Of a stretch of 64,000 nucleotides of DNA, positions 496-63,954 are shown one piece after another. The position numbers and the translations under genes are program-made. The notes below the pieces were generated by a model. It was not told the origin of the DNA and did not search any database. It saw nothing but the letters and a program-made list of their open reading frames with translations. Position 1 is the stretch's first letter. The number at the start of each line of letters is the position of its first letter. Source of the stretch: Oscillospiraceae bacterium (GTDB taxonomy: Bacteria; Bacillota; Clostridia; Oscillospirales; Ruminococcaceae); contig WRGW01000112.1 of the NCBI GenBank assembly GCA_009786985.1, positions 2,330 through 66,329 of the forward strand, read 5' to 3'.

Positions 496-1116
496 TTACC
501 ATCCCCCTTCTAATTTTTGGACAAACTCCCGCAACGCTTTACCACGATGGCTGACAGCGTTTTTATCATCGGCTGACATTTCGGCGAATGACTGATGTTG
601 TTGGCTCTGCCAATGTACAGGAGACTTAAAGCCTTGCCTGCTGTCGAGATACAAGAATACGGGGTCATACCCAAATCCATTTTCGCCTTGTTCAGAAAAA
701 GCAATCTGCCCCTCACACTCTCCATGAACGAATTTTGTATGCTCCTTGCCATCTCCATTGACATAACATATGCAGCAAACAAATCGAGCTGTGCGTTTAT
801 CGGCTGGGACATCTTTCATACGTTCTAACAGCCAAGCATTATCATAATTCGCCGAATACACCCCTGGTTCGCCGTCAAGTGCGTCAACGCAAAGCCCCGA
901 ATCGTCCGAAATTACTGGAAGCCCAGTTTTTTTATAAATCGCCCTTGCTTTGAGGGCAGCATTTTTTTCAAAAGTATCGCCAGTTTCGGCAACACTTATA
1001 CAAACCCCAGCTTCGGATTGTGAAATCGCTTCATAACCAAGAGGGGCTAATAGTTGCTTAAATTCACGAACTTTTCCAACGTTGTTAGACGCTATAATGA
1101 TTTTCATTTTATTCAT
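496..1116 (-). CDS. rdgB: Non-canonical purine NTP pyrophosphatase (Ham1 family), carrying a ~16-aa repeat-derived insertion
   Basis: ASNNxGK, DDSGL, GFGYDPVF and SHRGKAL motifs. Confidence 0.95.
   Translation of the reverse strand: MNKMKIIIASNNVGKVREFKQLLAPLGYEAISQSEAGVCISVAETGDTFEKNAALKARAIYKKTGLPVISDDSGLCVDALDGEPGVYSANYDNAWLLERMKDVPADKRTARFVCCICYVNGDGKEHTKFVHGECEGQIAFSEQGENGFGYDPVFLYLDSRQGFKSPVHWQSQQHQSFAEMSADDKNAVSHRGKALREFVQKLEGGW
594..642 (-). repeat. Copy of hairpin repeat module inserted in frame in rdgB
   Basis: Minus strand AGCAGGCAAGGCTTTAAGTCTCCTGTACATTGGCAGAGCCAACAACA aligns ungapped to 50614-50660 AGCAGGCAAGACTTCAAGTTGCCTGCTCGTTGGCAGAGCCAACGACA. Confidence 0.85.
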
Positions 1117-2180
1117 ACGCCACTTTCGCCATCTGGAAACAGCACGTTGACATAATCTTCTGGCACAAAAGGCTGTAAATCGTCGAGCTTTTCGCCTACA
1201 CCCACTAATTTGACTGGAATCCCAAGTTCATTCTTGATTGATACGATTATTCCGCCTTTAGCAGTTCCGTCTAACTTAGTCAGAGCTATTCCGCTAATCG
1301 CTGTAACTTGATTAAAAAGCCGTGCTTGATTAACAGCGTTTTGCCCAGTAGTTGCATCAAGTACGAGTAGTGTTTCAAAGCTACAGTCTGGTAGCTGTGA
1401 ATTGACTGAACGTGCGATTTTTTTTAGCTCTTCCATAAGGTGCTTTTTATTATGAAGTCGCCCCGCTGTATCGATTAACAAAACATCTACCCCTCTGGAT
1501 TTTGCAGCATTACAAGCATCATATGCAACCGCAGCGGGGTCAGCACCCTCAGCGTGTTTGACTATGTCGACTTCTGCACGATTAGCCCACTCTGAAAGCT
1601 GTTCGATAGCGGCAGCACGAAACGTATCCGCCGCCGCTATGAGGACTTTTTTGCCGTCTTTTCTAAGATTAGCGGCAAGTTTCCCGATTGTAGTAGTCTT
1701 ACCAGCACCATTCACTCCGATTACAAGAACAACAGAGGGGCTTGTAGTGAGTTTAAGTTCGTTGTCACCAGTAAGCATTTGTGTGATGATTTGCCTAAGC
1801 ATTCCAGTAATCACCGACGTGTCAGTAGCACCCACTCGTTTAATTTCAGCACGTAACTGCTCACAAATTTCATCAGCGGTCTGTACTCCTAAATCAGAGA
1901 GAATTAATGTTTCTTCGAGTTCTTCAAAAAATTCCTCATCAATCTTGGTGAACGAATTCACTACCCTTGAGATACCTTCAGAAAAGTTGTCTTTAGTCTT
2001 CTGCAATCCAGCCTTTAGCTTGCCGAATAATCCAAGCGGTTTTGATGGCTCTGGTGATTCGATTATTTCGGGTTTTGCTATAATTTCAGGCGTTTCAGAC
2101 CTGGTTGGATTTTCAACCTGTGTTTCAAGTGTTTCTTGCACCGATTCTTGTGATTTTTTTCGCTTTGAAAACAAGCCCAT
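1113..2180 (-). CDS. ftsY: Signal recognition particle receptor
   Basis: GVNGAGKTTTIGKLA, DTFRAAA, DTAGR, TKLDGTAKGG motifs. Confidence 0.97.
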   Translation of the reverse strand: MGLFSKRKKSQESVQETLETQVENPTRSETPEIIAKPEIIESPEPSKPLGLFGKLKAGLQKTKDNFSEGISRVVNSFTKIDEEFFEELEETLILSDLGVQTADEICEQLRAEIKRVGATDTSVITGMLRQIITQMLTGDNELKLTTSPSVVLVIGVNGAGKTTTIGKLAANLRKDGKKVLIAAADTFRAAAIEQLSEWANRAEVDIVKHAEGADPAAVAYDACNAAKSRGVDVLLIDTAGRLHNKKHLMEELKKIARSVNSQLPDCSFETLLVLDATTGQNAVNQARLFNQVTAISGIALTKLDGTAKGGIIVSIKNELGIPVKLVGVGEKLDDLQPFVPEDYVNVLFPDGESGV

Positions 2181-2247
2181 TTAATTTGTTCCCTTCAGTC
2201 TATATAGTTGCTTAACTTAAAAGTTATACTTATCTAATTCTACCACA

Positions 2248-3270
2248 TTATTCAGCTATTGTCAACATCTCCCCATCATTAGATATAGTTGTTTGCGGAA
2301 AAATCTTCTGAACTGCTTTTGTGCCGTCATGTGGGCGTTCGAGGGCAGGGCTATAATGAGTCAGCCACAATCGTTTGGCACCACATTTGCTGGCTAGTTT
2401 CGCCGAATCCGAAAACAGCATATGGTTTTTTTCGTCGATTTTTTCACGCATTCGTTCATCGTAATACATACCCTCGCTGATTAGCAAGTCTACATCTTTA
2501 GCAAAATCTATCATTTGCGGAAAAGGTTTAGTATCGGTAAAGTAGCAAACCGAAATCGGACGACGGATTCCATCTAAAACCTGCTCTGGCAGAATAATAC
2601 GACCATTATCGAGAGTGACACTCTCACCTGAATGCAGGTGTTTGTAAAACTTTACTGGAACATCAAGCGACTTCGCTTTATCTGGATTAAACACTGGTTT
2701 CCTCGAAAGTTCGATTCTATATCCGAGGCAGTTCACACCGTGCCTCAAAGGTAGTGCTGTAATTTTTACTGGCGAGGTCTTTTCCCTAGAACTTGCACGG
2801 TACCCTGCATCATGACCGCCGACGTTTTGGAGATATAGCGGTTTTGGAGTACAAGGAACAGAAGTCGCAATTGGACTACCAGCAGTAGGTTGGTCTGACT
2901 TTACTGTTCGGCTGAATTGTAACTCTATAATTTCAAGAGGAAAAGGTAGGCGTGGTGCGATTACCGTCAGTGCCGAAACAATCCGCTTCAGCCCGACTGG
3001 ACCTGCAATAGTGAGTGGCTGTGTTCGCGCGGAATTTGCAAGAGTGAGCAAAATCCCAGGTAAGCCCGATACGTGGTCGGCATGAAAGTGTGTGATTAGG
3101 AGCAGTTCGATTCTCGCAGGTTTTAGCCCCGCTTTCTTGAGGGCAATTTGCGTTCCCTCACCGCAATCGATTAAAATCGCTGCACCTTGATGTTCAATCC
3201 AACAACAAGTTAGCCATCTATTCGGAAGCGGAAGCATTCCGCCAGTCCCAGGTAGACATACATCAAGCAT
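2248..3270 (-). CDS. rnz: Ribonuclease Z (tRNase Z), with a ~35-aa internal insertion
   Basis: LPGTGGMLP, DCGEG, THFHADH, HYS motifs; likely start ATG 3270 (MLDVCL) overlapping upstream gene's stop. Confidence 0.9.
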   Translation of the reverse strand: MLDVCLPGTGGMLPLPNRWLTCCWIEHQGAAILIDCGEGTQIALKKAGLKPARIELLLITHFHADHVSGLPGILLTLANSARTQPLTIAGPVGLKRIVSALTVIAPRLPFPLEIIELQFSRTVKSDQPTAGSPIATSVPCTPKPLYLQNVGGHDAGYRASSREKTSPVKITALPLRHGVNCLGYRIELSRKPVFNPDKAKSLDVPVKFYKHLHSGESVTLDNGRIILPEQVLDGIRRPISVCYFTDTKPFPQMIDFAKDVDLLISEGMYYDERMREKIDEKNHMLFSDSAKLASKCGAKRLWLTHYSPALERPHDGTKAVQKIFPQTTISNDGEMLTIAE

Positions 3271-5782
3271 TGTTTTCTTCGCTTTCTTTTTCTTTTTTGA
3301 ATTTGACTGGGTCGAGCAAAAATCCGTGTTCGTAAATAGACGGTACAATTTGTTTATCGACAAGAGCGTTCAGAGCTTCTTTGAGTTGTTCATTTAATGC
3401 TTGATAAGTAGTATCAGGGCTTTTAGAAGCCATTCGCCCCTTGGCATTAACACCTTGAAAATGTCTACGAATATCATAAATAGACGCATTGTGTTCAAAC
3501 TGAAGATTTCCGCAAACTGAATGTGGGAAAGGTTTCCCATCATTTCCAGTATGATAATATCGGAAAATTTCAAGCCCTGCATCATAAACCGCTCTTGCAT
3601 CTGGAGTTAGTTCTTCGGGGAGATTGCGTTCGTTAAGACATTCATACACAGTTTTATGCTTGAATGCAGCTTCATTCGTTCCTATTTGTTTTTCGCTAAA
3701 AGGAATCCAGTGGTTTTCGCCGTTAGCAATTGAAACATAGTTTTGATTGTGGAAAATTGCGAAAATCAGGCAGTTGTTCACAAAATGCTTGGAGCGTAAC
3801 GGAATCTTGCTTGGATAACAAAATTGTTCACGGTCGTTTAACCATGTTGCTTTCACAGAATGCCGAACCGAGAAGTAGATTGCAGAATAAAGTAGTTGTT
3901 TGTCGGAAACAGTAAATTCATGATGACCTCGCCCTTTAGAGGATAGAAAAACAAATGATTGATTTTGAAAATCGTTTCCCACAAATCCCATTTTAGCTAT
4001 TGGGATTGCATTTTTAGGTTCGTTTTTTAAGAAATCGTCTTTCCAATCGTTGATTAACTTGCATTCAAAATACGTATGAATTTGATGTTTAGTCAAAAAT
4101 TTGCCGTCTGATTTATAAGCATCAACTTCTATACACGGGGTTAATTCCCATTCAACACTTGAATCCCAGACTTTAAACCCTATTGGGAATTTGCCAGACA
4201 CGTTATCAAAAGTTTCAGCTGGAATCAAAAAGCAAGATTTAAGTTCTGGTTTAAACCATGTACGCATTTGCTCAAAATTAGGCGACTGTAAAATTTTAAG
4301 TTTTGAAAACTCACCTATAATACAGCCCTTAAATTCAAGATAAATACGTGCAATAAACTGTGCAAAAAGCTCTCCTTGTGCTTTGCCGAGGTTTTTGGAG
4401 TGAATTTCTTTAATCGACGTTTCGCCTATGCCTTTTCTGCCCTCTTTATCGGCACTCATTTTTTTGCCATCACCCTCCGCATAAGGTGGGTTAATCAAGA
4501 ACACTAGTTTTTTGCGACGTTCTTCGCATTCAAGAACGTCCACCAACGCATCGGGAACTTTTCCGCCATCAGACTTGCGTTTGATTTCGTCATTCAAAAA
4601 GTCAAACTGGAATACGTTTTCAGCGAAAGTCGGCTTTGTTTCGTTTGCGGTAATGAGTACGTTTTGACGGTCAATGTCAGAAGCGAAAACTTGTTTGCTG
4701 TTATACAATCCCGAAAGCAGATTACCCGTCCCTGTAGCACAATCCCAAATTGTGTATTCATCTTGCCAGTTGTCGCTTAAGACCTCTCTCAAGCAATCGT
4801 GAGCTTTATTCACCCATTTACGAGGAGTAAAAAATGCACCTCTACGCTCCATAACATCACGAGGAATCAAAATATCACGGCGGAGCAAAATATCTTCCCA
4901 CGGGGAAGTTACCATACCTTCAGTTTTTTCACGGCGTGGAGGGCGTTTGCAACGTTTCCAAAATTTCTCGTATTTTACGCCATTATCTTTGAAAGTAACC
5001 TCATTTAATGTAGGGTCATCAAATACACCTTCTCTCGCTACTTTTATGAAGTATCTATGAATTTTACCACACCTCATTTGAACCTGTAGCGTTTCGAGTG
5101 ATGTTTCGCCAAAATCTTCGTCAACGTACGCATCTGCTATAAAAAAATCCGCAGCGGCGACACCGTTTCTCCCCCATTCTTCCCAGTCATCATCAGATAA
5201 ATCGATTTGCGGCAGAACCTCATCACACCATTTATCGAAAATGTGATTTAGATTATACACCGTCATATCAAATGCTGTAAGTTCTGATTGCTTTTCTAAA
5301 TCGGTTTTAATAAACGTCTTGAATTCAGTTAAATCTTTTTTGTTACGCAAATCAACGACACGTTCTACTTTTACATAACGTTCGATTAGCCCTTGAAGCT
5401 GCTTAAAACGCTCATGCGAATGATTAGATGGGGTAGTACTCCATTCTATATCCTGGCGAAAGAGTAAATCTCTGAAATTTTCCATCTTGTAAAGTGTGAA
5501 TTTTTCAGGGTCAAACACAGCGAGGTATGATGGTGGCATTGCATCTTCGGTGAAGTAGAATTTTCGCACAGTAAACAACAACTGTGTTAGCATAACCTCA
5601 CACGCTGTGACATCTTTTTTAGCTTCCGCCCAGAGCAAATGACGCTCTTCGTCACGTGGTGAAATCAAACAGAAGTCTATTTTAGACTTCCCGAAATCTG
5701 GTTCGTATCGAAAAGGTGAAAACATATATTCGTACATAGCTTGTTTGTACTGCTCTTCTGACATCTTTGACTTATAAATCAT
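3263..5782 (-). CDS. Putative Type IIG-like restriction-modification fusion (PD-(D/E)xK nuclease + N6-adenine methyltransferase + specificity region)
   Basis: N-terminal IDF...WAEAKK (D...ExK), GAFFTP, motif I IWDCATGTGNL, motif IV INPPY. Confidence 0.7.
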   Translation of the reverse strand: MIYKSKMSEEQYKQAMYEYMFSPFRYEPDFGKSKIDFCLISPRDEERHLLWAEAKKDVTACEVMLTQLLFTVRKFYFTEDAMPPSYLAVFDPEKFTLYKMENFRDLLFRQDIEWSTTPSNHSHERFKQLQGLIERYVKVERVVDLRNKKDLTEFKTFIKTDLEKQSELTAFDMTVYNLNHIFDKWCDEVLPQIDLSDDDWEEWGRNGVAAADFFIADAYVDEDFGETSLETLQVQMRCGKIHRYFIKVAREGVFDDPTLNEVTFKDNGVKYEKFWKRCKRPPRREKTEGMVTSPWEDILLRRDILIPRDVMERRGAFFTPRKWVNKAHDCLREVLSDNWQDEYTIWDCATGTGNLLSGLYNSKQVFASDIDRQNVLITANETKPTFAENVFQFDFLNDEIKRKSDGGKVPDALVDVLECEERRKKLVFLINPPYAEGDGKKMSADKEGRKGIGETSIKEIHSKNLGKAQGELFAQFIARIYLEFKGCIIGEFSKLKILQSPNFEQMRTWFKPELKSCFLIPAETFDNVSGKFPIGFKVWDSSVEWELTPCIEVDAYKSDGKFLTKHQIHTYFECKLINDWKDDFLKNEPKNAIPIAKMGFVGNDFQNQSFVFLSSKGRGHHEFTVSDKQLLYSAIYFSVRHSVKATWLNDREQFCYPSKIPLRSKHFVNNCLIFAIFHNQNYVSIANGENHWIPFSEKQIGTNEAAFKHKTVYECLNERNLPEELTPDARAVYDAGLEIFRYYHTGNDGKPFPHSVCGNLQFEHNASIYDIRRHFQGVNAKGRMASKSPDTTYQALNEQLKEALNALVDKQIVPSIYEHGFLLDPVKFKKEKESEENNA

Positions 5783-6678
5783 AGTCTAATAGTTCCTCTA
5801 CTATGCAGATTAGAAATTTCTACGTTTTTATGCACACCGCCACTTTCGCCATCTAAGCACCATGCGATGTTCTGACCCTCTTCACTGGTGATTTTTACGT
5901 TTGACACACGTTCAAAAATAACATAATCTGAGTGGAATTTTTGTGCCGATAAATCCATCATAATTTTACTAAGCAGAATTGGATTATTTGGGTTTTTTAC
6001 GAGAATAAGTTCAAATTTTCCATCATCTAACTGAACTTTTGAGCGGTTTAGCTTAAACATTCCAGCGACTGAAGTTGTATTTGCAATCAAACCTACTGCA
6101 AATTCATCAGTCACCACGGTTCCGTCGTATTCAATTGTCATCTTGTATGCAGGAATATCGATTGTCTGCTTGACACCTTCCGCAACATACGCCAGATGCC
6201 CGAACACTTTTTTTGCACCTTGAGGAACTACGTAAGATACCGACGTAAATAATCCAAACGCCGCTACATACACAAAAAAACGCTCCCCCTCACTCGTAGT
6301 AATGCTACCAATATCAAGAGGCGAGTCAGCTCCGTTTATGATTTTTTCGACTGCACGTTCAACGTTTGTTGGCATAGAAACTGTTCGTGCAAAGTCATTA
6401 GAAGTTCCCGCTGTGATGAAGCTGAAGCTCGGCGGTTCAGAAATTCGCATAAGCCCGTTAATCGTTTCGGAAAGTGTTCCATCGCCGCCATAGCAAACAA
6501 CCAAGTCGAACGCCTTTCCGTTGATATAGGCTATTCTCTCGGCATCTCCTCTTTTTACTGTGGGGAAAACGGTAACTTCGTATCCGTTAGCAGAAAAAGC
6601 AGTCACTAATCGTAACAAAATTGAACCAGCTTTCATTCTACCAGCGTTAGGGTTTATGATTAATAATAATTTTTTCAT
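5779..6678 (-). CDS. Diacylglycerol/lipid kinase family protein (YegS/BmrU-like)
   Basis: IINPNAG, GGDGT, AGTSNDFAR, DGE motifs. Confidence 0.9.
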   Translation of the reverse strand: MKKLLLIINPNAGRMKAGSILLRLVTAFSANGYEVTVFPTVKRGDAERIAYINGKAFDLVVCYGGDGTLSETINGLMRISEPPSFSFITAGTSNDFARTVSMPTNVERAVEKIINGADSPLDIGSITTSEGERFFVYVAAFGLFTSVSYVVPQGAKKVFGHLAYVAEGVKQTIDIPAYKMTIEYDGTVVTDEFAVGLIANTTSVAGMFKLNRSKVQLDDGKFELILVKNPNNPILLSKIMMDLSAQKFHSDYVIFERVSNVKITSEEGQNIAWCLDGESGGVHKNVEISNLHSRGTIRL

Positions 6679-6729
6679 TCTTCCTACCAGCGTTAGGGTT
6701 TATGATTAATAATAATTTTTTCATTCTTC
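6638..6729. repeat. Perfect 46-bp tandem duplication covering the lipid kinase start
   Basis: CTACCAGCGTTAGGGTTTATGATTAATAATAATTTTTTCATTCTTC at 6638-6683 and 6684-6729. Confidence 0.95.
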
Positions 6730-10615: not shown

Positions 10616-10722
10616 TGTTTCGGTTGTCTGCCATAGGCAGACGAGAAACAGGGGCATTTTGAGCAACGAAAGTCACGAGCGGCTTTGCCGTGAGTGTGTA
10701 AGACTTTCGTTGCGGAGTAATA
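10616..10722 (+). repeat. Two-module palindromic repeat (TGTTTC-GTCTGC hairpin + GAAAGTC/GACTTTC hairpin)
   Basis: First module recurs at 10843-10894 (inverted) and 56753-56803; second recurs at 16251-16317 and partly at 24016-24041. Confidence 0.85.
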
Positions 10723-10802
10723 TTTCTTTATACATTAGTCTACCATATTAAGTTCATTTTGTCAATACTTTTCAAAAAATAGCGAATAAATCATCACAAA
10801 TC

Positions 10803-10831
10803 TTGACATTGGGGGTGAAAAGTGATATAAT
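10803..10831 (+). promoter_or_regulatory. SigA-type promoter for the amidohydrolase operon
   Basis: TTGACA-17 nt-TATAAT, perfect consensus. Confidence 0.8.
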
Positions 10832-10842
10832 AGTCAAATAGT

Positions 10843-16180: not shown

Positions 16181-16317
16181 GCACGATTAGTCGTGACGAA
16201 TTAATCGGCTAGTTGCGGCGGTTATTTTCGCAGAAAATGAGCCGCAGAGCCATTTTGAGTGCGAAAAGTCCCGAGCGGCTTTGCCGTGAGAGCTAAGACT
16301 TTTCGTGCGGGTTAATA
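16181..16317 (+). repeat. Structured repeat in the glyA leader
   Basis: 16251-16317 CATTTTGAG..GAAAAGTC.CGAGCGGCTTTGCCGTGAG...TAAGACTTTTCGTGCGGGTTAATA matches 10655-10722. Confidence 0.8.
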
Positions 16318-16349
16318 TTACGAATTTTTTGAAAATAGGAGTAACCATA

Positions 16350-23725: not shown

Positions 23726-23871
23726 AGGTTTATTCGCCTTTCATTTTTAGAAACGCCCTTGTTTAGCTGTTCTTCGGCAGACATAAAAAGCCCGGCAAAG
23801 CCGACCTTTGTTATGCCCTTGTTTAGCTTACTATATGAATATGCCAAATAAAAAGTGAGTAGGACAAGGTC

Positions 23872-23900
23872 TTGACTTTTTTGTGAAAGTATGATATAAT
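23872..23900 (+). promoter_or_regulatory. SigA-type promoter of trpEG
   Basis: TTGACT-17 nt-TATAAT with TG extension. Confidence 0.7.
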
Positions 23901-23904
23901 AGTC

Positions 23905-24041
23905 AAACAAGAGCGGAGGTGTCAGTGGCTGAGCCAATGAGCAGTCCGCTTGACGACAAGCCAAACAAGAACTCAAGGTCGACTGAACACAAGCTCGATG
24001 AAGCCTGCGCGCGGTGTTAAGACTTTGTTGGTGGGGTAATA
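23905..24041 (+). repeat. Mosaic of repeat modules forming the trpE leader
   Basis: 23920-23945 is the inverted CTGCTC-NNN-GGC-NNN-GCC-NNN-GACAC hairpin; tail TAAGACTTTGTTGGTGGGGTAATA matches 10699-10722. Confidence 0.7.
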
Positions 24042-26476: not shown

Positions 26477-27337
26477 ATGGCTATAGAGGTTTTTAAGAGA
26501 CTTGAAATCAAATACATTATGGATTCGGAGCGGTACAAACACATTACTGACTTTCTTACACGGTACATGAACTTAGACGAGTTTAATCAAGGTGGTAATT
26601 TTTATTCAATTGCGAATATTTATTACGATACGGTTGACCACAACATTATCCGTCAATCCGTTGCAAAACCGAAATATAAAGAGAAGTTACGGTTAAGAGC
26701 TTATGGCGTACCCGAACTCGATGACAAGGTTTATCTTGAAATCAAGAAAAAATATAAAGGAATCGTGTATAAACGGCGCGTAACCATGAAGTTACATGAA
26801 GCATATGATTTCATCAATACGTGGGAGGTTCCAGCCGAGAAAAGCAAAAAATTTGTAAGAAATCAGGTGTTCCAAGAACTTAAGCACACCTTGAATTTCT
26901 ACAATCCAGTTCCAATGATTTATTTGGCTTATGACCGTATTGCGTATTTCGGGAAAAGCCCAGATGAGGGTGGTCCTGGGCGTGATTTGCGGATTTCGTT
27001 TGACTTTAATGTACGAACTCGGCGCGAAAACACTGGGCTTGAACTCGGCGACCATGGCGAACAACTACTCCCAGGTGGGAAGGTGATTATGGAAGTTAAG
27101 TCGGCGACTCCGCTACCACAATGGTTGCTTGACTATTTTGCAGAACATGGTATGAGGCGCGGTAGCTTCTCTAAATATGGGCAGGAGTACAAGCGTTTCA
27201 TAAAACGCCAGCTTGAGGATGGGCGTTCGATTATTGAGCCTGCAACGATTACTGGTGATATCAAGCCGCCACCGCCGATTCAAGTGGCTGAACCGGTCGC
27301 TGAAGCTCAGACTACTACTGCCACTCATACGGCGTAA
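26477..27337 (+). CDS. VTC / polyphosphate polymerase domain protein (CYTH-like)
   Basis: FKRLEIKY, IYYDT, KEKLRLRAYG, LEIKKK, YDR.A, LRISFD, MEVK, FSKY. Confidence 0.88.
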   Translation: MAIEVFKRLEIKYIMDSERYKHITDFLTRYMNLDEFNQGGNFYSIANIYYDTVDHNIIRQSVAKPKYKEKLRLRAYGVPELDDKVYLEIKKKYKGIVYKRRVTMKLHEAYDFINTWEVPAEKSKKFVRNQVFQELKHTLNFYNPVPMIYLAYDRIAYFGKSPDEGGPGRDLRISFDFNVRTRRENTGLELGDHGEQLLPGGKVIMEVKSATPLPQWLLDYFAEHGMRRGSFSKYGQEYKRFIKRQLEDGRSIIEPATITGDIKPPPPIQVAEPVAEAQTTTATHTA

Positions 27338-27514
27338 AGCCAAACAAGATGTCCGTAAGCGGAGCTTTGCTTCGCTATAGGACATTGCCGTAGGAACCCT
27401 TATATTAACCCCATTTAACTATTGTCTTGACATTTAGATGGGGAGCTACCTGTGGTTTTGCCCTATTTCAAAAAATCAAAAAATTAAATTATAAATAAAG
27501 GAGATTCTTTAACA

Positions 27515-28306: not shown

Positions 28307-28310
28307 GCAA

Positions 28311-28410
28311 GCAAGAGCTGCAGGGGTGGCTCTGCCAACCCTCAAAAACCCGAAACCCACAACGGCGAAGTTCTCTCAAGTTACCTGCTCAGTGGCAGAG
28401 TTGCCGACAC
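28311..28410 (+). repeat. Two repeat modules (GGTGGC-TCT-GCC hairpin; CTGCTC..GACAC hairpin)
   Basis: 28313-28342 resembles 60443-60475 and 63908-63940; 28385-28410 resembles 50636-50661. Confidence 0.65.
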
Positions 28411-50505: not shown

Positions 50506-50726
50506 TTATTGAAAGTTCGGGCGTAATATCCTGGCGAGTTTGGGTGTAATACCCCCGACGCTTTGCGTTGATTATCTCGGGCGAAGTGAGAGAGGTGCAT
50601 GGCGAGTCTGTCAAGCAGGCAAGACTTCAAGTTGCCTGCTCGTTGGCAGAGCCAACGACACTTCAACTCTCGCGCTTTGCAAAGCCTGCTCTTCGAGAGC
50701 TTTGCCATGCGGTGTTACCGAACATT
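50506..50726 (+). repeat. Cassette repeat copy 3 (longest, 221 bp, nested modules)
   Basis: TTATTGAAAGTTCGGG ... TGCGGTGTTACCGAACATT with a second left end at 50536 and an inserted hairpin module at about 50622-50680. Confidence 0.9.
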
Positions 50727-54498: not shown

Positions 54499-54507
54499 GT
54501 GAAAGCT

Positions 54508-55023
54508 ATGCCTAAACATTCAACAGTGTTCGGTAACATCGCATGGCAAAGCTCTCAAAGAGCAGGTTTTGCTTGCCTGACAGAGTCACACCTGTCGCTC
54601 TCCCGCTTCGTGCGTGAGAACCGCCCTAAAAGGCGTGGTATTCCCCCCGAACTTTTAATAGAACCAGAAAAATCAAGCCCATGTGAAATAATAGAAAAGA
54701 AATCGCGTTTTATAGGATTTGCAAAGCGAGTAGCCACCGAAGAAGAGGCAAAGGCGTTCATTGAAAAAGTGCGTTTGGAGCATCGAAAATCTCGCCATAT
54801 TGCATTTGCTTATGTGCTTTCTAATACCGCTAAAACAAATGATGATGGTGAACCTAAAGGGACTGCGGGTCTTCCGATTTATAACACAATCATTCGGCGT
54901 GAATTACAGAATGTCGTGGTAGTAGTCGTGCGATATTTTGGTGGGATTTTGCTCGGAAAAGGTGGCTTGATTCGTGCGTATGGCAGGGCGGCAGGTTTGG
55001 CACTTGAGCATTTGAGAGATTAA
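54508..55023 (+). CDS. yigZ: YigZ/IMPACT family protein with repeat-derived N-terminal insertion
   Basis: EKKSRFIG, DDGEPKGTAG, VVVVRYFGGILLGKGGLIRAY; AGGTGA RBS before ATG 54508. Confidence 0.88.
   Translation: MPKHSTVFGNIAWQSSQRAGFACLTESHLSLSRFVRENRPKRRGIPPELLIEPEKSSPCEIIEKKSRFIGFAKRVATEEEAKAFIEKVRLEHRKSRHIAFAYVLSNTAKTNDDGEPKGTAGLPIYNTIIRRELQNVVVVVVRYFGGILLGKGGLIRAYGRAAGLALEHLRD
54525..54660 (-). repeat. Cassette repeat copy 4, in frame inside yigZ
   Basis: Reverse complement TATTAAAAGTTCGGGG...GACTCTGTCAGGCAAGCAAAACCTGCTCTTTGAGAGCTTTGCCATGCGATGTTACCGAACACT aligns to copy 3. Confidence 0.9.
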
Positions 55024-55111: not shown

Positions 55112-55205
55112 TTGACATTTACAAAAAGATATGATATAATAGCAAAGCAAGAGTGGAGCTATGCTTCGGCTTTTGCTTGACGAGTCTTAAAATTTATGAT
55201 ATAAT
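55112..55205 (+). promoter_or_regulatory. Tandem SigA-type promoters for tRNA-Gly
   Basis: TTGACA-17-TATAAT (55112-55140) and TTGACG-17-TATAAT (55177-55205). Confidence 0.75.
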
Positions 55206-55236
55206 AGTGTAGTTGAATTGCGAAAGTGATAAAACT

Positions 55237-55665: not shown

Positions 55666-55853
55666 GAGCTGAAGGGGTCGTAGTGAAATTCTTACCCAAT
55701 TCGAAATCGTGCTTAATGCTTATATGATTATGCAGAGCCCTAATTGGTGTATTGGCACATATGCGCAACTGTCGCCACAGTACTGCCGTAATTTGAAAGA
55801 GTGATTGGGTATTATGAATTTGGTTATGCGGTTGGTCTCGCCTGAATTTTATT

Positions 55854-55895
55854 AGAAGCTGTGTTCATAGGGCTAAGCCTATGAACACAGCTTCT
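55854..55895. terminator. 18-bp perfect inverted repeat downstream of sigK
   Basis: AGAAGCTGTGTTCATAGG / CCTATGAACACAGCTTCT. Confidence 0.6.
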
Positions 55896-55943
55896 TACTA
55901 CTTTTTGAGGGATTATATGTCAACTATTAACAGTGCAATCCAT

Positions 55944-57506: not shown

Positions 57507-57561
57507 AAAACACATAACTATAGGGAGTGGCAAATCGCCACTCCCTATAGTTATGTGTTTT
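57507..57561. terminator. 25-bp perfect hairpin between convergent genes
   Basis: AAAACACATAACTATAGGGAGTGGC-AAATC-GCCACTCCCTATAGTTATGTGTTTT. Confidence 0.7.
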
Positions 57562-57571
57562 TGTTGACGAC

Positions 57572-58312
57572 TTAAACGATTTTAGCAATTAGCTGGATTG
57601 TATTGTAATACTTTCCACCTTCTGCTTTCATCATGTCTAAATCCCATTTATGCTCTTCGTTGTTTGGGTCGCGACTGTTAAGATACTCTTCCCAAGCGAT
57701 GTTGTGGCAAGTTTGTTCGCTGATGTTTATGATTTCTACGCCTTTGGCTTTGCTCCACAACTCACGCCACCAGTCAATACCACGGACGTATTTTGCCACT
57801 TCTGGAACGTTCCAGAATGGTTGCATTTCCAGCGGAACGTTTTCTCCAAAATCAGCTTTTAATCCTGGGAACGAAACTGCGATATAACCGCCTTTTTTTA
57901 CATAAGTCGCAATGTTCGTGAGTGAATCTTCATGAATTCCGAACATATTATACGCACCTACTGAAAAGGCAACATCAAAATACCCTTTCGCAAACGGCAT
58001 AGATTGTGTTACGTCAAGCGTCATCGGAATGATTTTGTCTGCAATTCCTATAGTTTTGAAACGCTCGTGATTTTCTGTCGGGTCTGCGTATAAATCAGTA
58101 GCGAAGACATTAGCATCATGTGCTTTAACTAAATACAAAGCCGATAAACCAGTGCCACACCCTAAATCGAGTATTTTTGTATTCCCCGTAATTTCCAGGT
58201 GCGATGCTAATTCCTCAGACTGTCGTATACCGTTTGGACCCCACATTAGTTCATTTAACAATGCAAGGTTGTTTTCGTCGGCGACGAACTTGTTTGAAAA
58301 TGTGTTACACAT
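57572..58312 (-). CDS. Class I SAM-dependent methyltransferase
   Basis: LMWGPN, ILDLGCGTGLS, FD..FSVGAY, KGGYIAV. Confidence 0.88.
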   Translation of the reverse strand: MCNTFSNKFVADENNLALLNELMWGPNGIRQSEELASHLEITGNTKILDLGCGTGLSALYLVKAHDANVFATDLYADPTENHERFKTIGIADKIIPMTLDVTQSMPFAKGYFDVAFSVGAYNMFGIHEDSLTNIATYVKKGGYIAVSFPGLKADFGENVPLEMQPFWNVPEVAKYVRGIDWWRELWSKAKGVEIINISEQTCHNIAWEEYLNSRDPNNEEHKWDLDMMKAEGGKYYNTIQLIAKIV

Positions 58313-58477
58313 TATTTTTTTCCTCCGTTAAAGTTAAGTTTGCCTTGAAAGGGCTTAAATAACTGTGGGAGGTTTTAACACAAGATTATTTTATGCAAAC
58401 CTCCCGGTTTGCTACTATCTGTGTTTTATTGTTTTTACGCATAAAAATCTCCTTTCCTCTTTATTATACTTTAAGAT

Positions 58478-58611
58478 TCGTCAAGCCGACTGCCGTCAAG
58501 CAAAGCTCGCCGCACCACGGCTCTTGTTTTACCTGCGTCAAACGGCTCAAAACCTGAACCGCCATTTGCCGCTTCGTCAGGCTCCCTGCTCACCGGCAGA
58601 GCCGGTGACAC
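58478..58611. repeat. Mosaic of repeat modules immediately 3' of the tRNA
   Basis: 58586-58611 CTGCTCACCGGCAGAGCCGGTGACAC covaries with 50636-50661; 58478-58529 resembles 27342-27375 and 55143-55183 on the opposite strand. Confidence 0.7.
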
Positions 58612-58616
58612 TTACC

Positions 58617-58690
58617 TGCACCATCAGGGACTCGAACCCCGGACCTACCGGTTATGAGCCGGTAGCTCTAACCAACTGAGCTAATGGTGC
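58617..58690 (-). tRNA. tRNA with CAT anticodon, probably tRNA-Ile2 (lysidine type) rather than Met
   Basis: GCACCAT/ATGGTGC acceptor, ACCGG-CTCATAA-CCGGT arm, GGTTCGAG; C4:G69 and CTCATAA loop resemble Firmicute Ile2. Confidence 0.9.
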
Positions 58691-58700
58691 AATACAAAAG

Positions 58701-58800
58701 TTATTGAAAGTTCGGGTGTAATACCTCCGACGCTCTGCGTCGGTTCTCTCGAGCGAAGCGAGAGGGGTGCAGAGCTTGCCCTGCGGTGTTACCAAACATT
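58701..58800 (+). repeat. Cassette repeat copy 6 (100 bp)
   Basis: TTATTGAAAGTTCGGGTGTAATACC...TGCGGTGTTACCAAACATT. Confidence 0.9.
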
Positions 58801-59027
58801 GTAACATAAAAAACTGAATACGTCAAGCAAAATAAAGCCAAAGCACAGCTTTGTCTTTGTTTTGCTCTTGCTATTATAACACATTTTTTTGAAAATTGCA
58901 AGCAAAATTTTGAATTTTGAAAAAAAAATTAAAAATTTTGCAACCTTTCTATATCGAGAAGCGTTTTATTAGTATTAAGTCACCGACAAAGTCATGGTTT
59001 AATAATTGTACGAAAGGTAAAAAATTC

Positions 59028-60425
59028 ATGAAAAATACTAAAGGTTCTAAAAAAACACTCAAAATTATGGCACTGGCGTTAATTACGATGCTCCTGCTCA
59101 CATTGGTGGCTTGTAATAGCGATGATATAAACCATGTGGTTGAAAACGTTCCTGAACGTGGACGCACTAGTGAAAACGGTGAGGCTGATAATAATTCAGT
59201 GCTTGAAGGGCATTCTGCTGATTACGCACTTGAAGGCGATTCCGTTGATGACATAGTAGATATAGTAGTGGGGGGCGTAGATTTAGGGGAAGTGGGCGAT
59301 GTTGATAGCGATATGAGAATGAGCGACGATGAACATCATTTTGTGGAACCAATCCCTCCTGCTGGTGGCGAAACACAATACCCTGATATAGAGCTTTTGC
59401 CAATCGAACCGGGTCAACTTACAGCTGGTGAGTGGAACGATAACGCTAATTTGGATTTGTGGAACTCTCTTTTCCGCAATGCACCGTGGCGAAATTTCCC
59501 GCAGACGTGGGGGCTTTCGACTGCGAATCGTATTATAGTGAATGTCACAAATGGCGATTCACCAATACGTAATGCGCGTGTCGAGCTTTTTGGTAGCAAT
59601 GATGACCCACTTTGGGTTTCACGCACTGACCATAATGGGAGAGCGTTTGTGTTCGGTGACTCTGACCCACAATCACAAACTGGGGCTTCTCACATAATTG
59701 TGACTATGGGTTCGATTGAAGAGCGTGTGAATGTCGGGAGTTCTGATACTATAACAGTCGATTTAAGTGGTGCAACTTCTCCAACCCGAGCGCTTGATTT
59801 GATGTTTGTAATCGACACCACTGGTTCAATGGGAGATGAATTGCGTTATTTGCAAGCCGAACTTGAAGATGTGATTGATTCTGTTCGTAGCCAAAATTCT
59901 AGCTTGCCGATTAGGCTTTCGATGAACTTCTACCGTGACCACGGTGATGATTATGTAGTTCTCCCTCATTCGTTTACCGAAGATATTCCTGAAGCTATTC
60001 GTATTCTTGGTAGGCAGAGTGCGGCTGGTGGCGGTGACTGGCCTGAAGCTGTAGCCGAAGCACTCGAAAACGCCGTGTTTGAACACGATTGGCACGAAGA
60101 TTCGATAAAGTTGATGTTTTTAGTTCTCGACGCACCAGGTCACGAAAACCCAGAGTCGATTGCAACTATAAACAAAGCCGTGCGTGAAGCAAGCGAAAAA
60201 GGAATACGTATAATCCCTATTCAAGCGAGTGGGAATATGGGTTTGTATGATACAATCACCGAATTTAAAATGCGTGCATTCAGTATTTTGACTGGTGGAA
60301 CTTATACCTTCCTTACCAGTGATTCAGGCATAGGTAATCCACACAACGAACCTACCATCGGTGCATTTCAAGTTGAAATGTTAAATGAAATGTTGGTGCG
60401 GATTATTAACGAATATATTTCATGA
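59028..60425 (+). CDS. Lipoprotein with von Willebrand factor A domain
   Basis: Lipobox LVAC, DLMFVIDTTGSM MIDAS motif, GGGDWPEAV, LDAPGH. Confidence 0.88.
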   Translation: MKNTKGSKKTLKIMALALITMLLLTLVACNSDDINHVVENVPERGRTSENGEADNNSVLEGHSADYALEGDSVDDIVDIVVGGVDLGEVGDVDSDMRMSDDEHHFVEPIPPAGGETQYPDIELLPIEPGQLTAGEWNDNANLDLWNSLFRNAPWRNFPQTWGLSTANRIIVNVTNGDSPIRNARVELFGSNDDPLWVSRTDHNGRAFVFGDSDPQSQTGASHIIVTMGSIEERVNVGSSDTITVDLSGATSPTRALDLMFVIDTTGSMGDELRYLQAELEDVIDSVRSQNSSLPIRLSMNFYRDHGDDYVVLPHSFTEDIPEAIRILGRQSAAGGGDWPEAVAEALENAVFEHDWHEDSIKLMFLVLDAPGHENPESIATINKAVREASEKGIRIIPIQASGNMGLYDTITEFKMRAFSILTGGTYTFLTSDSGIGNPHNEPTIGAFQVEMLNEMLVRIINEYIS

Positions 60426-60440
60426 AATTTGAAGCAAAAC

Positions 60441-60552
60441 AAGAGCGCGTCCTGCAAAGGCGGCTTTGCCGTCTTGAAGGGATTAGCTTGAAGAAGTGCT
60501 TCGTCGAGAGTTCGCCCACTACAGACGAGCAAAGCCCGTATGTAGTGGGCAT
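60441..60552 (+). repeat. Repeat module plus hairpin between convergent genes
   Basis: GAGCGCGTCCTGCAAAGGCGGCTTTGCCGTCTTGAAGGGATTAGCT matches 63908-63954; GCCCACTACA/TGTAGTGGGC hairpin follows. Confidence 0.75.
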
Positions 60553-60565
60553 ACTTTTGTTTTGC

Positions 60566-61942
60566 TTACATCAACTCAAACCTTAATCGCCCGATTCGCC
60601 TGCCCTCCATCGTTAGAACGGTGATTTTAAAAAGTTCACTCACTGTAATTTCACCTGCTTCAGGGATTTTCCCGAAAAGTTCAAATACCCAGCCACCCAC
60701 GGTATTACGTTCTGATTTGATTATGAATTGTGGCGATTTTTCTGATTCATCAGATTTGAAGGCCTTGTCTGCACGGTCGGCGAAAAAACGATTAAAGTCA
60801 ATTATACTAAGTTCGCTCTGAACTTCAAACACACCATCAACGTCTGGCTTAAATTTGATTGGTTGAGTTTCTTCATCTCCCTCATCCCAAATTTCGCCGA
60901 CGAGTTCTTCTAAGATATCCTCAAGTGTGACAATTCCAGCAGTTCCGCCATACTGGTCTAACACGACCGCAAGGTGGGATTTTTGACGCTGCATAAGTTT
61001 GAGTGCCTCGGACAATTTCATCAAAGCGGGGAGTTTTATTATATCGTCTTGAACTAAATCTCTCACTAAATTTGGTGGTTCTGGATTTTCTGAAAGCTCT
61101 ACGTTTTTAGTGGTTTCGGTATTTTCAGAATGAGCCGATTTTTCTGATTGGGTAGATAACAGGCGTTTCATAAACTCCTTATTGCTAATCATACCGACGA
61201 TTTTGTCGAGGCTTTCTTCATATACGGGTAGGCGTGAATAGCCCTCTTTCAAAAAAACGTCACGCACTTTCTCAACCGAATCGTTAATCGAAACGGCGAC
61301 TATATCAACACGTGGAGTTTGGATTTTCTCGACTGTCGTTTCGTCAAATACTAACGCAGAACGCACCAAATCACTCTCGTGTTCTTCTAACACACCCTCG
61401 TCTTCGATTTCGTCGATAATCTGTAATAGTTCTTCTTCAGTAACGCTGACTTGTGCTTCTTCCTTAGCGAAAATTTTTGTCACCCCACGTTGTAGTAAGA
61501 GCATGACGGACGAAATTGGCATAAACAGCCACATCACAAAAGTGAGGACTCCTGCCGCAGTAAGCACAAACCAGTCAGCGTGTTCGCGTGCGAGGGTTTT
61601 AGGCAAAATGTCAGAAAAAATAATCAAAGCCACTGTGAGCACTGCCGATGAAACGGCGACAACAAACCCCTCGTCCCAATCAGCGGTGCGTGCTAAATCA
61701 ATTGCAAGCAAAGTCGCTACTGATGCCACGATAATTGTGAGGACATTTACACCGATTAAAAGGGTAGCAAGCATTCGGTCATAGTTTTCAAGTAGTCTTA
61801 ACACTTTTTTCGCAGAAACAGAACCGTTTTCGGCACGATGTTTAATCCGAATACGGTTAGTTCCTGTTATTGCGGTTTCGCTCGATGCGAAAAATCCAGA
61901 TAATAAAATCAAGATTATAATTACAGCGATTTGCCAAGCCAT
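60566..61942 (-). CDS. HlyC/CorC family (CNNM + CBS) transporter-associated protein
   Basis: SGFFASSETA, TPRVDI, YSRLPVY, DQYGGTAGIVTLEDILEELVGEIWDE. Confidence 0.93.
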   Translation of the reverse strand: MAWQIAVIIILILLSGFFASSETAITGTNRIRIKHRAENGSVSAKKVLRLLENYDRMLATLLIGVNVLTIIVASVATLLAIDLARTADWDEGFVVAVSSAVLTVALIIFSDILPKTLAREHADWFVLTAAGVLTFVMWLFMPISSVMLLLQRGVTKIFAKEEAQVSVTEEELLQIIDEIEDEGVLEEHESDLVRSALVFDETTVEKIQTPRVDIVAVSINDSVEKVRDVFLKEGYSRLPVYEESLDKIVGMISNKEFMKRLLSTQSEKSAHSENTETTKNVELSENPEPPNLVRDLVQDDIIKLPALMKLSEALKLMQRQKSHLAVVLDQYGGTAGIVTLEDILEELVGEIWDEGDEETQPIKFKPDVDGVFEVQSELSIIDFNRFFADRADKAFKSDESEKSPQFIIKSERNTVGGWVFELFGKIPEAGEITVSELFKITVLTMEGRRIGRLRFELM

Positions 61943-62740
61943 TTAGCTTTTACTCCTATCTGATACAATCAGCTTACGAACAGCTTCGACTGCACATTTA
62001 ATCGCACGACTATTGTCTTTACATACACTATCTGGAAGCCCAGCTTTTGAGCGTTCAACATTCCAGAGTGCGGTTAAAACAGCACCTGCACGAACTTCTC
62101 TCACGAGTGCGACTGAAAACAAAGTTGCCGCCTCCATTTCAGAAGCAAGACATCCCGCTTTTAGATACGCATTCCATCTATTATGAAGATGTGGTGCAAT
62201 CGGCATGGTTTCGGGTGCAACTTCGCCATAAAACGAATCTTTGCTCTGAACCACACCCACGTGGTAAGCGTTGCCAGCGTTCGTGGTAGAGCTTTGTTTG
62301 GCAGCCTCGGCTAAAGCTGAAACGACCTCAAAATCAGCCACTGCTGGATAGCAAGATGGTAGATATTCAGCACTCGCCCCATCACCACGAATTGCGGCTG
62401 AAGCTATGACTAAATCTCCGCCATGAACTTTTAGATTGATTCCCCCAGAAGTCCCAACTCTCACAAAAGTATGACAACCACATTTGACTAGCTCTTCAAT
62501 CGCAATCGCAGCTGACGGACCGCCGATTCCTGTCGAAACCACGCTTACAGGAGTTCCATCTAAACTCCCAGTATAAGTCACGTATTCTCGATTAGTTGCT
62601 ATGTGTTTGGGGTCATCTAAGTATTCGGCGATTTTTGAAACTCTCCCAGGGTCTCCCGGTAAAATCACGTATTTACCGACTTGGTTTTTATCAGCAGAAA
62701 TCTGTAGATGATACTGAAAATTCGGGTCTAACAAAGCCAT
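61943..62740 (-). CDS. udp: Uridine phosphorylase
   Basis: LPGDPGRV, STGIGGPSAAIA.EEL, RVGTSGG, SKDSFYG, SEMEAA; likely start ATG 62740. Confidence 0.92.
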   Translation of the reverse strand: MALLDPNFQYHLQISADKNQVGKYVILPGDPGRVSKIAEYLDDPKHIATNREYVTYTGSLDGTPVSVVSTGIGGPSAAIAIEELVKCGCHTFVRVGTSGGINLKVHGGDLVIASAAIRGDGASAEYLPSCYPAVADFEVVSALAEAAKQSSTTNAGNAYHVGVVQSKDSFYGEVAPETMPIAPHLHNRWNAYLKAGCLASEMEAATLFSVALVREVRAGAVLTALWNVERSKAGLPDSVCKDNSRAIKCAVEAVRKLIVSDRSKS

Positions 62741-62766
62741 ATTTTTATTCTCTTTTCTTTTTCGAT

Positions 62767-62843
62767 TTATTGAAAGTTTGGGTGCATAGTCGGCTATATC
62801 AAGCAGGCAAAGCCTGCACATCGAGAGCTTTGTTACCAAACAT
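62767..62843 (+). repeat. Cassette repeat copy 7
   Basis: TTATTGAAAGTTTGGGTG...TCAAGCAGGCAAAGCCTGC..TCGAGAGCTTTGTTACCAAACAT. Confidence 0.88.
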
Positions 62844-62845
62844 CT

Positions 62846-63418
62846 TCAAGTTTTTTTAGAACTTTGAGATTTTGGAGTTTTTTTCTTGCGTCGTTTTGGC
62901 TTGTTAAAGCTATCGAGTACACTAGGTCTTTGTTTAGGCGAATCGTCAGATATGTTCATTTTATAAAGGCTTTGGCTAGGGTCATTTGGATTTCTGTATC
63001 CATCATTTCCAAGAATACTCTCAGCGGGCGCGTTGTGTTTTTGACGAGCTTTTTCTGCCATATCAATCCCCGCCATGGTAATGACTGTGAGAGTCGCTAT
63101 CAGTAACGGGAGATAAAAACCTCCGTTAAACACCATATTTTCTGTGATGTAGTCTAAAAAACCTAAGTGCAGAACTAATAGCAAGATTGCCCCACCAATC
63201 GACAAACCAGCAGCAATCCGATACATTTTTAGTTTCACGAAAACACAAGGCGTGATATATCCAGCGACCGTCGCAAACAACCACAAAATCGGGATATAGA
63301 CTGGTAAAGCCTCACCAATTTCAGAAAAAAGCAACATACTCAAAGGGAACACCACTCCAATTACAAGCCCCCATATTGCTACAATTATAAACATTATAAT
63401 TCTCAAAAATAATTTCAT
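62846..63418 (-). CDS. Hypothetical membrane protein (about 4 TM, basic tail)
   Basis: Hydrophobic segments; AAAGGGGA RBS. Confidence 0.75.
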   Translation of the reverse strand: MKLFLRIIMFIIVAIWGLVIGVVFPLSMLLFSEIGEALPVYIPILWLFATVAGYITPCVFVKLKMYRIAAGLSIGGAILLLVLHLGFLDYITENMVFNGGFYLPLLIATLTVITMAGIDMAEKARQKHNAPAESILGNDGYRNPNDPSQSLYKMNISDDSPKQRPSVLDSFNKPKRRKKKTPKSQSSKKT

Positions 63419-63563
63419 ATGACCATGATTCCCCTTTCACCACACGAATTTCCGCAAATACTGTCAAATTTTATATGTTGTCGAGGATTTTGGGTAAAGT
63501 GATAGACAAAGCCCATACAACGAAAATGTGAATGGGTTTTTGAAGGTTGCCTTATACTCATAG

Positions 63564-63593
63564 ATTATAACATACTAAACATACGTTTGTCAA
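63564..63593 (-). promoter_or_regulatory. SigA-type promoter for the membrane protein-udp-hlyC operon
   Basis: Minus strand TTGACA-18 nt-TATAAT. Confidence 0.6.
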
Positions 63594-63815
63594 TAGGGTA
63601 TTGCGTAAATTTAGGTACAGTTGCATCAAACCACAAAATCCCCTTGAGCTTGAAACAGGAATTGAAACACTTATTACTGAAGAATATTTGATGGACAAGA
63701 ATTCACAGCAATGTTCTAATTCAAGTGAAATAAATGTAATTTCAGACACGTACTACCCTAAAGAATAAAATCAAAAGATTTCTCAATCACTTTGAAACAT
63801 GACTGGTATTGAAAA

Positions 63816-63890
63816 CTGAACTTGATTTCTGGTAGAATTATGAGTGTATATTAGACCTTTAGGGCTGTTGAATAAATTAACAGCCCTAAA
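63816..63890 (+). pseudogene. Duplicated 3' end of the DUF4097 gene with its terminator
   Basis: Encodes LNLISGRIMSVY* versus LNLTSGRIRIMSVY* at 37380; same hairpin follows. Confidence 0.8.
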
Positions 63891-63907
63891 ATATATTTGC
63901 AAGACGA

Positions 63908-63954
63908 GAGCGCGTCCCGCAGAGGTGGCTCTGCCATCCTCGCAGGGATTAGCT
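63908..63954 (+). repeat. Repeat module
   Basis: GAGCGCGTCCCGCAGAGGTGGCTCTGCCATCCTCGCAGGGATTAGCT matches 60443-60488. Confidence 0.75.

Follow-up and report, generated by a model that had tools for sequence, protein, structure and literature searches.

Hairpin cassettes of an Oscillospiraceae genome share a GGC-TYT-GCC triloop tip into which further cassettes are inserted

In a 64,000-nt stretch of DNA from an Oscillospiraceae bacterium (contig WRGW01000112.1, positions 2,330 to 66,329; hereafter, the window), part of an assembly of 1.81 Mb in 112 contigs with 40% G+C (GCA_009786985.1; here G000), we found that the nine-nucleotide word GGC-TYT-GCC (GGCT[CT]TGCC) forms the tip of repeated hairpin cassettes, and that its triloop is the exact point at which further cassettes are inserted. 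We suggest, with a probability of roughly 0.6, that these cassettes constitute a clade-restricted superfamily of non-autonomous mobile or selfish hairpins, akin to repetitive extragenic palindromic (REP) sequences, to their bacterial interspersed mosaic elements (BIMEs) and to miniature inverted-repeat transposable elements (MITEs), in which the tip would have two linked roles. As three G:C pairs closing a pyrimidine triloop, it would be a required structural feature of the folded strand that carries the T-rich loop (the T-loop strand), be it single-stranded DNA or RNA, while its triloop would be the preferred integration site for further cassettes, with duplication of the loop. Repeated integration into triloops would then produce Russian-doll hairpins and mosaic arrays.

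The tip is real and highly non-random. Within the window, we counted 10 copies of GGCT[CT]TGCC where 0.60 were expected from 100 dinucleotide shuffles (largest shuffle value, 4), and the whole genome held 281 copies compared to 11 of the reversed control pattern, which rules out chance or base composition as the cause of the motif. Among all GGC-NNN-GCC words of the genome, the loops TTT/AAA (177) and TCT/AGA (104) far outnumbered the next commonest loop (23). Upon placing the copies on a greedy map of open reading frames (ORFs) of at least 80 aa, we found 196 of the 281 outside ORFs, in ~13% of the DNA, which corresponds to 0.85/kb versus 0.054/kb inside, a 16-fold difference, whereas the remaining GGC-NNN-GCC words showed no such excess (33 outside, 61 inside). 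The first-pass annotation of the window had proposed a triloop core common to its repeats, to be given up if it were not enriched between genes; as intergenic enrichment was found, with shuffles and reversed controls both exceeded, its observation stands. The word is present on the expected strand at each of the ten sites that it had named, with the last one beginning at 63927 instead of 63926, and the two sites that it had named as variants proved to be of different kinds: 23927 (GGC-TGA-GCC) does belong to the family and has an altered loop, while 55871 (GGC-TAA-GCC) is unrelated and caps a terminator-like hairpin (55840-55900) with a 16-bp stem and a T-run after it. In total, cassettes make up at least 45 kb, or 2.5% of the assembly, and 101 of its 224 contig ends lie within them, compared to 2.8% of random windows.

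Sorting by flanks and clustering across the whole genome showed that the tip caps hairpins of 50-75 nt that belong to at least 12 sequence families. A typical cassette consists, in order, of a 5' frame GCAAAAC[AG]AGAG, a variable lower stem, a purine-rich internal loop, five covarying pairs, the tip, and a 3' frame. In its general form GC[ACT]A[AG]AC[AG]AGAG, the 5' frame occurs 300 times, compared to 3 times for the reversed control, and the 3' frame CT[TC]GA[AC]G is common to most families; neither frame is an inverted copy of the other, and only some cassettes carry an inverted 5' frame. The internal loop is conserved and fixed at five pairs from the tip stem, mostly with GCA opposite GGA, GCA, GTA or GAA. 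The earlier description of the modules as otherwise different therefore has to be given up, as most of them share both frames and only some lack them, such as the long 'family 4' hairpins (10681 and 16277 in the window) and a G-run-rich family. Conversely, an exact tip follows the 5' frame in only ~119 of 337 cases, and framed cassettes also bear alternative tips (GAGC-TTT/TGT-GCTT, GGAA-TTCA-TTCC or GGCGAC-TTC-GTCGTC). Since the tip also occurs on unframed hairpins, and the frames also occur with other tips, the tip is one widely shared module and not the sole link between the families: the end frames are more widespread, and the tip is neither the only nor the most general shared feature. 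At a larger scale, hairpins form clusters of alternating orientation with head-to-head and tail-to-tail junctions and recurring linkers (contig C1 and others). The arrays of the congener G069 are mostly direct tandems, unlike the mixed-orientation arrays of G000; three of its loci (L081, L082 and L088) are perfect tandem arrays of 2-4 cassettes with a period of 51-73 nt, which begin at a stop codon and finish in a partial copy of the 5' frame.

The pairing pattern supports that the hairpin structure is under selection or constraint. The covariation that had been quoted for two window copies is exact: GTGTC-GTT-GGC-TCT-GCC-AAC-GAGCAG (50645, minus strand) and GTGTC-ACC-GGC-TCT-GCC-GGT-GAGCAG (58595, minus strand) differ by compensated stems within identical flanks. 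Genome-wide, each of the four Watson-Crick pairs is represented next to GGC/GCC (C-G 71, T-A 61, G-C 49, A-T 27), and the next four pairs outward are also mostly complementary. For the statistics, the selection of sequences relied on a pattern in which tip, GNA triplets and frames were held constant and the stems under test were left free. The 29 distinct apical arm pairs of cassettes with the internal-loop pattern were 88% paired, compared to 58% with shuffled partners (maximum 69% in 1000 shuffles). On an alignment of 56 distinct cassettes, drawn from this genome, the second species G069 and the unbinned contigs of the two source metagenomes (Ga0082212 and Ga0123356), RNAalifold predicted three helices, i.e., a base helix GAG/CUU, a lower stem and an eight-pair apical stem, with nine pairs changed on both sides. 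In this alignment, 98.1% of the cells pair versus 81.9% after shuffling, and 139 cells show a double change versus 45, with none of 500 shuffles attaining either value; when the 3' partner was displaced by 1-3 columns, only 38-57% of the cells still paired.

The two strands are not equivalent. Among the non-Watson-Crick cells in the five apical pairs, G.T occurred 158 times versus 45 times for A.C, and the G.U of the base helix was kept in 49 of the 56 aligned sequences. When folded as RNA, the T-loop strand exceeded its complement in stability by >2 kcal/mol in 146 copies, the reverse being true of 23, and the median strand difference was at or below zero (T-loop strand favored or equal) in 13 of 13 families. 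For the copy at 60434-60494, for example, the T-loop strand folded at -28.1 kcal/mol (z -3.2), compared to -14.5 kcal/mol (z +0.2) for the complement.

Nested copies place the insertion point within the triloop itself. A full 'family 2' cassette sits exactly in the triloop of at least four different types of host hairpin. In a 'family 4' host, the filled tip reads GGC-TTC-[53 nt]-TTC-GCC, and this composite was itself copied to at least five loci; another filled tip reads GGC-TTT-[..]-TTT-GCC, and a 'family 0' host reads GGC-TTT-[..]-TCTT-GCC. An arrangement like the last is present in the window, in a minimal 'family 1' host at 50608-50693 (minus strand), where the host halves are ...AAGAGCA-GGC-TTT and TCTT-GCC-TGCTTGACAG and the covariance-model match spans 50624-50680. 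Because the duplicated triplet matches the loop of its host (TTC with TTC, TTT with TTT), it represents a real target duplication of 3 nt, or of 5 nt if the following GC is counted. Additionally, hosts of 'family 2' and 'family 3' contain in their tips a 39-nt mini cassette in reversed orientation, and truncated, footprint-like inserts were also seen. The precision of the triloop as an insertion site implies that something recognizes it. Regarding the proposal of the first-pass annotation that one protein recognizes this shape, the shape is indeed constrained and its triloop is a precise insertion site, and a single recognizing protein would be a reasonable extrapolation, as the tip sequence is conserved over covarying stems and the insertion is site-specific. 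We infer that a trans-acting factor, for which our gene searches yielded no candidate, recognizes the tip in a DNA or an RNA form.

Comparison with relatives showed further changes of cassette content. The RdgB/Ham1 protein contains an in-frame insert of 16 residues, contributed by a cassette fragment, between its GFGYDP motif and SFAEM, which is absent in four congeners. Species also differ in the orthologous leader of glyA: that of G000 carries a 'family 4' hairpin and that of G490 another cassette, while those of G006 and G461 are devoid of tip-bearing elements, which amounts to a turnover between species.

Cassettes also join promoters and reading-frame ends at exact positions. Across the genome, the start of 28 cassettes lies precisely 1 nt behind a -10 box (TGnTATAATA followed by GC...), and in at least 11 of these promoters the sequence upstream is unique and contains a TTGACA-like -35 at 17 nt. 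A cassette block of this type terminates in its own TTGACG and, after a spacer of 17 nt, in a second TGnTATAAT. The box varies at one base only, and this base is identical in both copies in 10 of 11 cases (0.91 for own pairs versus 0.37 in cross-comparisons), an agreement which suggests that the duplication comprises 8-10 nt of the -10 region and that the cassette supplies a new -35; a promoter split by a cassette would thus appear to be rebuilt downstream by means of the cassette's own -35. Such -10 junctions occur in the window at 55130-55206 as well as at 10823-10838, 23892-23907 and 58866-58881 (minus strand). At the other end of genes, we considered cassettes with the end of a long ORF no more than 40 nt upstream: of 67 such cases in this genome, 38 have the cassette start at most 1 nt from the stop codon, as do 17 of 22 in relatives, with window examples at 27335-27391 (start 27339) and 60501-60568 (minus strand; start 60565). 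This adjacency could be due to a target preference, to a stop codon supplied by the element, or to a function in RNA. Counted as copies and not as independent events, cassettes in co-directional spacers had sense:antisense ratios of 71:37 in G000, 9:0 in G069 and 13:1 in G461/G490, and the arrays of G000 mix both orientations. Strand asymmetry, sense bias and stop-codon adjacency together point to a single-stranded active form and leave room for a role at the RNA level.

The cassettes are confined to a small group of relatives. A strict pattern GNA-N5-tip-N5-GNA gave 75 matches in G000, 48 in the congener G069 and at most 2 in 59 other congeners, and upon scanning 400 genomes from 177 genera of the same order, no genome gave more than 8 matches, compared to the 75 in G000. 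A covariance model built from the 56-cassette alignment and run on 101 congeners detected cassettes in six of them (G000, G003, G006, G069, G461 and G490) and in none of the other 95. All six are small genomes of 1.3-1.9 Mb. They all retain the frames and the tip, while the stems and internal loops differ, and where their tips vary, they do so by compensated changes or wobble pairs (GGT-TTT-ACC, GGC-TTT-GCT) or by TTC or TCC loops. In a metagenome scan, matches came almost only from contigs of two samples, which are the sources of G000 and G069. Outside this group, a genome from a different family of the same order (G236) contains eight identical copies of GAACCCCC-GGC-TTT-GCC-GGGGGGTA (e.g., C13:110-134), which represent, in this distant relative, an independent repeat of hairpin form that has an identical tip.

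Table 1. Hairpin elements of the window. Bits are covariance-model scores; MFE, minimum free energy; an empty cell means that no value or context is given.
Element	Position	Strand	Score or fold	Context
Degenerate cassette fragment, tip 603-611	594..642	+		In frame within the rdgB/Ham1 gene (minus strand; Ham1 domain), adds 16 residues
Long 'family 4' hairpin without frames, tip 10681-10689	10640..10735	+	MFE -28.7 kcal/mol, z -2.4	5' region of amidohydrolase gene
Second 'family 4' hairpin, tip 16277-16285	16240..16320	+		Upstream of glyA
Framed cassette, tip 23794-23802	23774..23827	-	20.2 bits	
Framed cassette, variant loop GGC-TGA-GCC	23902..23956	+	32.1 bits	Upstream of anthranilate synthase gene
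Framed cassette, variant tip GAGC-TTT-GCTT	27339..27391	+	33.2 bits	1 nt past stop codon of ORF 26477-27337
Short framed cassette, tip 28328-28336	28307..28356	+	17.5 bits	
Nested pair: complete 'family 2' cassette (~50625-50680, tip 50645-50653) in triloop of minimal 'family 1' hairpin	50608..50693	-		
'Family 1' element, degenerate tip GG-TTTTGCTT-GCC	54525..54660	+		Read in frame at 5' end of yigZ-like ORF
Promoter-type cassette (55142-55194)	55130..55206	+	21.5 bits	Upstream of tRNA-Gly
Framed cassette, variant tip GAGC-TTT-GCTT	58478..58532	-	39.6 bits	
Half cassette without 5' frame, tip 58595-58603	58574..58619	-	18.4 bits	Directly 3' of tRNA-Met
Canonical cassette with all parts, GCA/GAA internal loop, tip 60462-60470	60434..60494	+	68.2 bits	
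Cassette, variant tip GGC-TTT-GCT	60501..60565	-	33.3 bits	Directly after TAA of CNNM-family gene (60566-61942, minus strand)
Minimal 'family 1'-type hairpin, tip 62806-62814	62790..62830	-		
Cassette, tip 63927-63935	63899..63969	+	45.8 bits; MFE -40.2 kcal/mol, z -5.9	

Several elements of the window (Table 1) deserve comment. The cassette at 23902 begins directly after a -10 box, TGATATAATA (23892-23901), and the promoter-type cassette lies between two copies of TATGATATAATA (55130-55141 and 55195-55206), the second -10 box being preceded at 17 nt by a TTGACG that belongs to the cassette. The degenerate tip of the 'family 1' element in the yigZ-like ORF looks like the remnant of a nested insert. 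In the cassette at 63899, the 5' frame recurs in inverted form as the 3' side, which results in a single long hairpin. A riboswitch or leader role of the hairpins at 10681 and 16277 was rejected, as the downstream genes are unrelated (an amidohydrolase and serine hydroxymethyltransferase), at least 18 copies occur in mixed contexts, and the glyA leader varies among species. A search of the window against Rfam 15 returned only two tRNAs at the gathering score, and a permissive scan of 60380-60620 gave one chance-level microRNA match. The GC skew within the window tracks gene direction. By its gene content, the organism is a spore-forming Firmicute, and its ClpC shares about 51% identity with that of Clostridia/Acutalibacteraceae MAGs.

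We compared the cassettes to known repeats. The REPs of Enterobacteria and Pseudomonas are short GC-rich imperfect palindromes that occur by the hundreds between genes, form mosaics with alternating orientation and conserved linkers, and are recognized as folded single strands (PMC1525189, PMC3333891, PMC2817692, PMC3116915); they are also documented as targets for other insertions (PMC1525189). The cassettes are likewise short GC-rich imperfect palindromes of high copy number and extragenic location (281 tips and 300 frames in 1.8 Mb), and their clusters alternate in orientation with conserved linkers, as in BIMEs. They differ in having A[AG]AC[AG]AGAG in place of a GTAG-type 5' foot, and furthermore in that their conserved end frames are single-stranded, their triloop tip is conserved, they insert into one another, and they join stop codons and -10 boxes with single-nucleotide precision; moreover, none of the six cassette-bearing genomes contains a gene for a REP-associated tyrosine transposase (RAYT). 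The analogy to REPs that the first-pass annotation had drawn thus holds for the architecture and fails for the transposase. Insertion sequences (IS) of the IS3 family (IS1397, ISKpn1) and the IS110 family (IS621, ISPpu9) insert site-specifically into REP hairpins (PMC1525189). Here, by contrast, the inserted DNA is a hairpin cassette of 40-60 nt that lacks a transposase gene, and the searches of G000 turned up no intact transposase of the IS3 or IS110 family. For IS1397, insertion takes place in the loop of the palindromic unit with a duplication of 3-4 bp, which resembles the 3-nt loop duplication of the cassettes. Small dispersed repeats (SDRs) of Nostoc and other cyanobacteria (Elhai et al. 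2008, cited in PMC3116915) provide another parallel. The cassettes resemble SDRs in being tiny repeats with no known transposase and differ from them in phylum and sequence, in their greater length, and in their fixed end frames and defined triloop insertion point. A further likeness would be nesting, since SDRs are reportedly found inside other repeats and hairpins (Elhai et al. 2008). Correia/NEMIS MITEs and Rickettsia palindromic elements are non-autonomous hairpin repeats that are co-transcribed with genes; Correia elements can supply promoter elements, and Rickettsia palindromic elements can lie in frame inside proteins. The in-frame cassette copies of RdgB and YigZ recall the latter, while the cassettes, unlike MITEs, lack regular terminal inverted repeats and a matching autonomous IS and have flanking duplications of variable length. 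A search of the literature on nested hairpin repeats returned nothing specific.

Several observations weigh against an origin of the cassettes as mobile hairpins. No transposase could be tied to them: Y1_Tnp (RAYT/IS200, PF01797) was missing from all six cassette-bearing genomes in a search that was positive in 6 of 14 control genomes, where two of the six genomes are at least 95% complete and all are metagenome bins, from which multicopy IS could have dropped out. In G000, no TnpB or IS110 transposase was found, and the only traces of transposases were an rve (IS3-like) remnant and a DDE_Tnp_1 pseudogene. Furthermore, the flanking duplications are unequal, with 3 nt in loops versus 8-10 nt at -10 boxes, so that one staggered-cut enzyme does not explain both. 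The tip is also not universal, as about two-thirds of the 5' frames, some of them truncated or reversed copies, lack the exact 9-mer. Finally, the strong sense bias in three species (22:1), together with the adjacency to stop codons, could mean a function in RNA instead of mobility.

As to the enzymes themselves, the rve remnant is a 5'-truncated integrase at a contig end (C6:3201-3287, L093), the DDE_Tnp_1 pseudogene (C106:40820-41017, L094) contains two stops, and G000 also has two tyrosine recombinases. A search for Y2 transposases gave no match in G000, but it matched no control genome either. Reverse transcriptase (RVT_1) was present in only one of the five cassette-bearing genomes searched, in a 401-aa ORF of G490 (C11:14397-14990, L263), which leaves a retro-element origin unsupported.

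Given these observations, we considered that the cassettes may mainly be functional mRNA modules that stabilize or process transcripts or act at translation termination, right behind stop codons, and at 5' ends, with the tip read by an RNA-binding protein or RNase and mobility of the DNA being secondary. The nearly exclusive sense orientation in G069 (9:0) and G461/G490 (13:1) would fit such modules, as would the tolerance of G.U on the sense strand only, including the base-helix G.U in 49 of 56 sequences, and the left ends lying within 1 nt of a stop codon (38 of 67 here, 17 of 22 in relatives); the 28 cassettes that start 1 nt after a -10 box would, moreover, form the very 5' end of the transcript. 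We nevertheless find this rather unlikely as the main explanation, as the orientation in G000 is merely 71:37 with arrays that mix orientations, orthologous sites such as the glyA leader are not conserved, copies lie within coding regions and within each other, and no Rfam family matches. An RNA function overlaps with mobility of the hairpins, and the two are not mutually exclusive. That the cassettes are intrinsic transcription terminators, or ordinary hairpins at gene ends, which have converged on a stable tip is the least probable of the explanations considered here, and we regard it as extremely improbable. While many cassettes do directly follow stop codons, and a GGC-NNN-GCC word also caps the unrelated terminator-like hairpin at 55871, a position table showed no T enrichment 3' of the cassette hairpins, which sets them apart from intrinsic terminators, and many cassettes lie between promoter and start codon, in tandem arrays or within genes. 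That the flanking frames are conserved, and that only 6 of 101 congeners carry the cassettes, argues for common descent rather than convergence.

Classical REP or REPIN sequences spread by a RAYT would account for short GC-rich imperfect palindromes of high copy number between genes, for the BIME-like alternating mosaics, and for the use of the hairpins as insertion targets, as known for REPs (PMC1525189). Yet, with Y1_Tnp in 0 of 6 cassette-bearing genomes, two of them at least 95% complete, in a search that detected it in 6 of 14 controls, and with a frame AAC[AG]AGAG where REPs would have a conserved 5' GTAG, this explanation is largely refuted and highly improbable, and a RAYT is excluded as the protein that recognizes the tip. 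A bolder possibility, which we consider unlikely, is that the cassettes represent a new type of mobile element without a transposase of a known family, where a folded single strand of DNA or RNA, with its conserved triloop tip, would integrate into single-stranded or easily melted DNA, and the cassette's own -35, together with the duplicated -10, would restore the promoter that it split. Such integration sites would include the triloops of hairpins, the -10 regions and the ends of reading frames. Microhomology-guided template switching, or attack at melted DNA, may also provide alternative routes. Overall, we favor non-autonomous mobile or selfish hairpins whose tip would serve both as a structural requirement and as a landing site.

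The spread of short hairpin repeats is understood only where a RAYT is present, and the cassettes described here show unusually clean signs of movement without the usual transposases. Their presence in 6 of 101 congeners makes a co-occurrence screen for the responsible factor feasible. Cassettes occupy at least 2.5% of a small genome, and almost half of the contig ends are broken within them, which fragments metagenome assemblies. For the organism, they add residues to proteins, as in RdgB and YigZ, and place structured RNA at the start or end of many transcripts.

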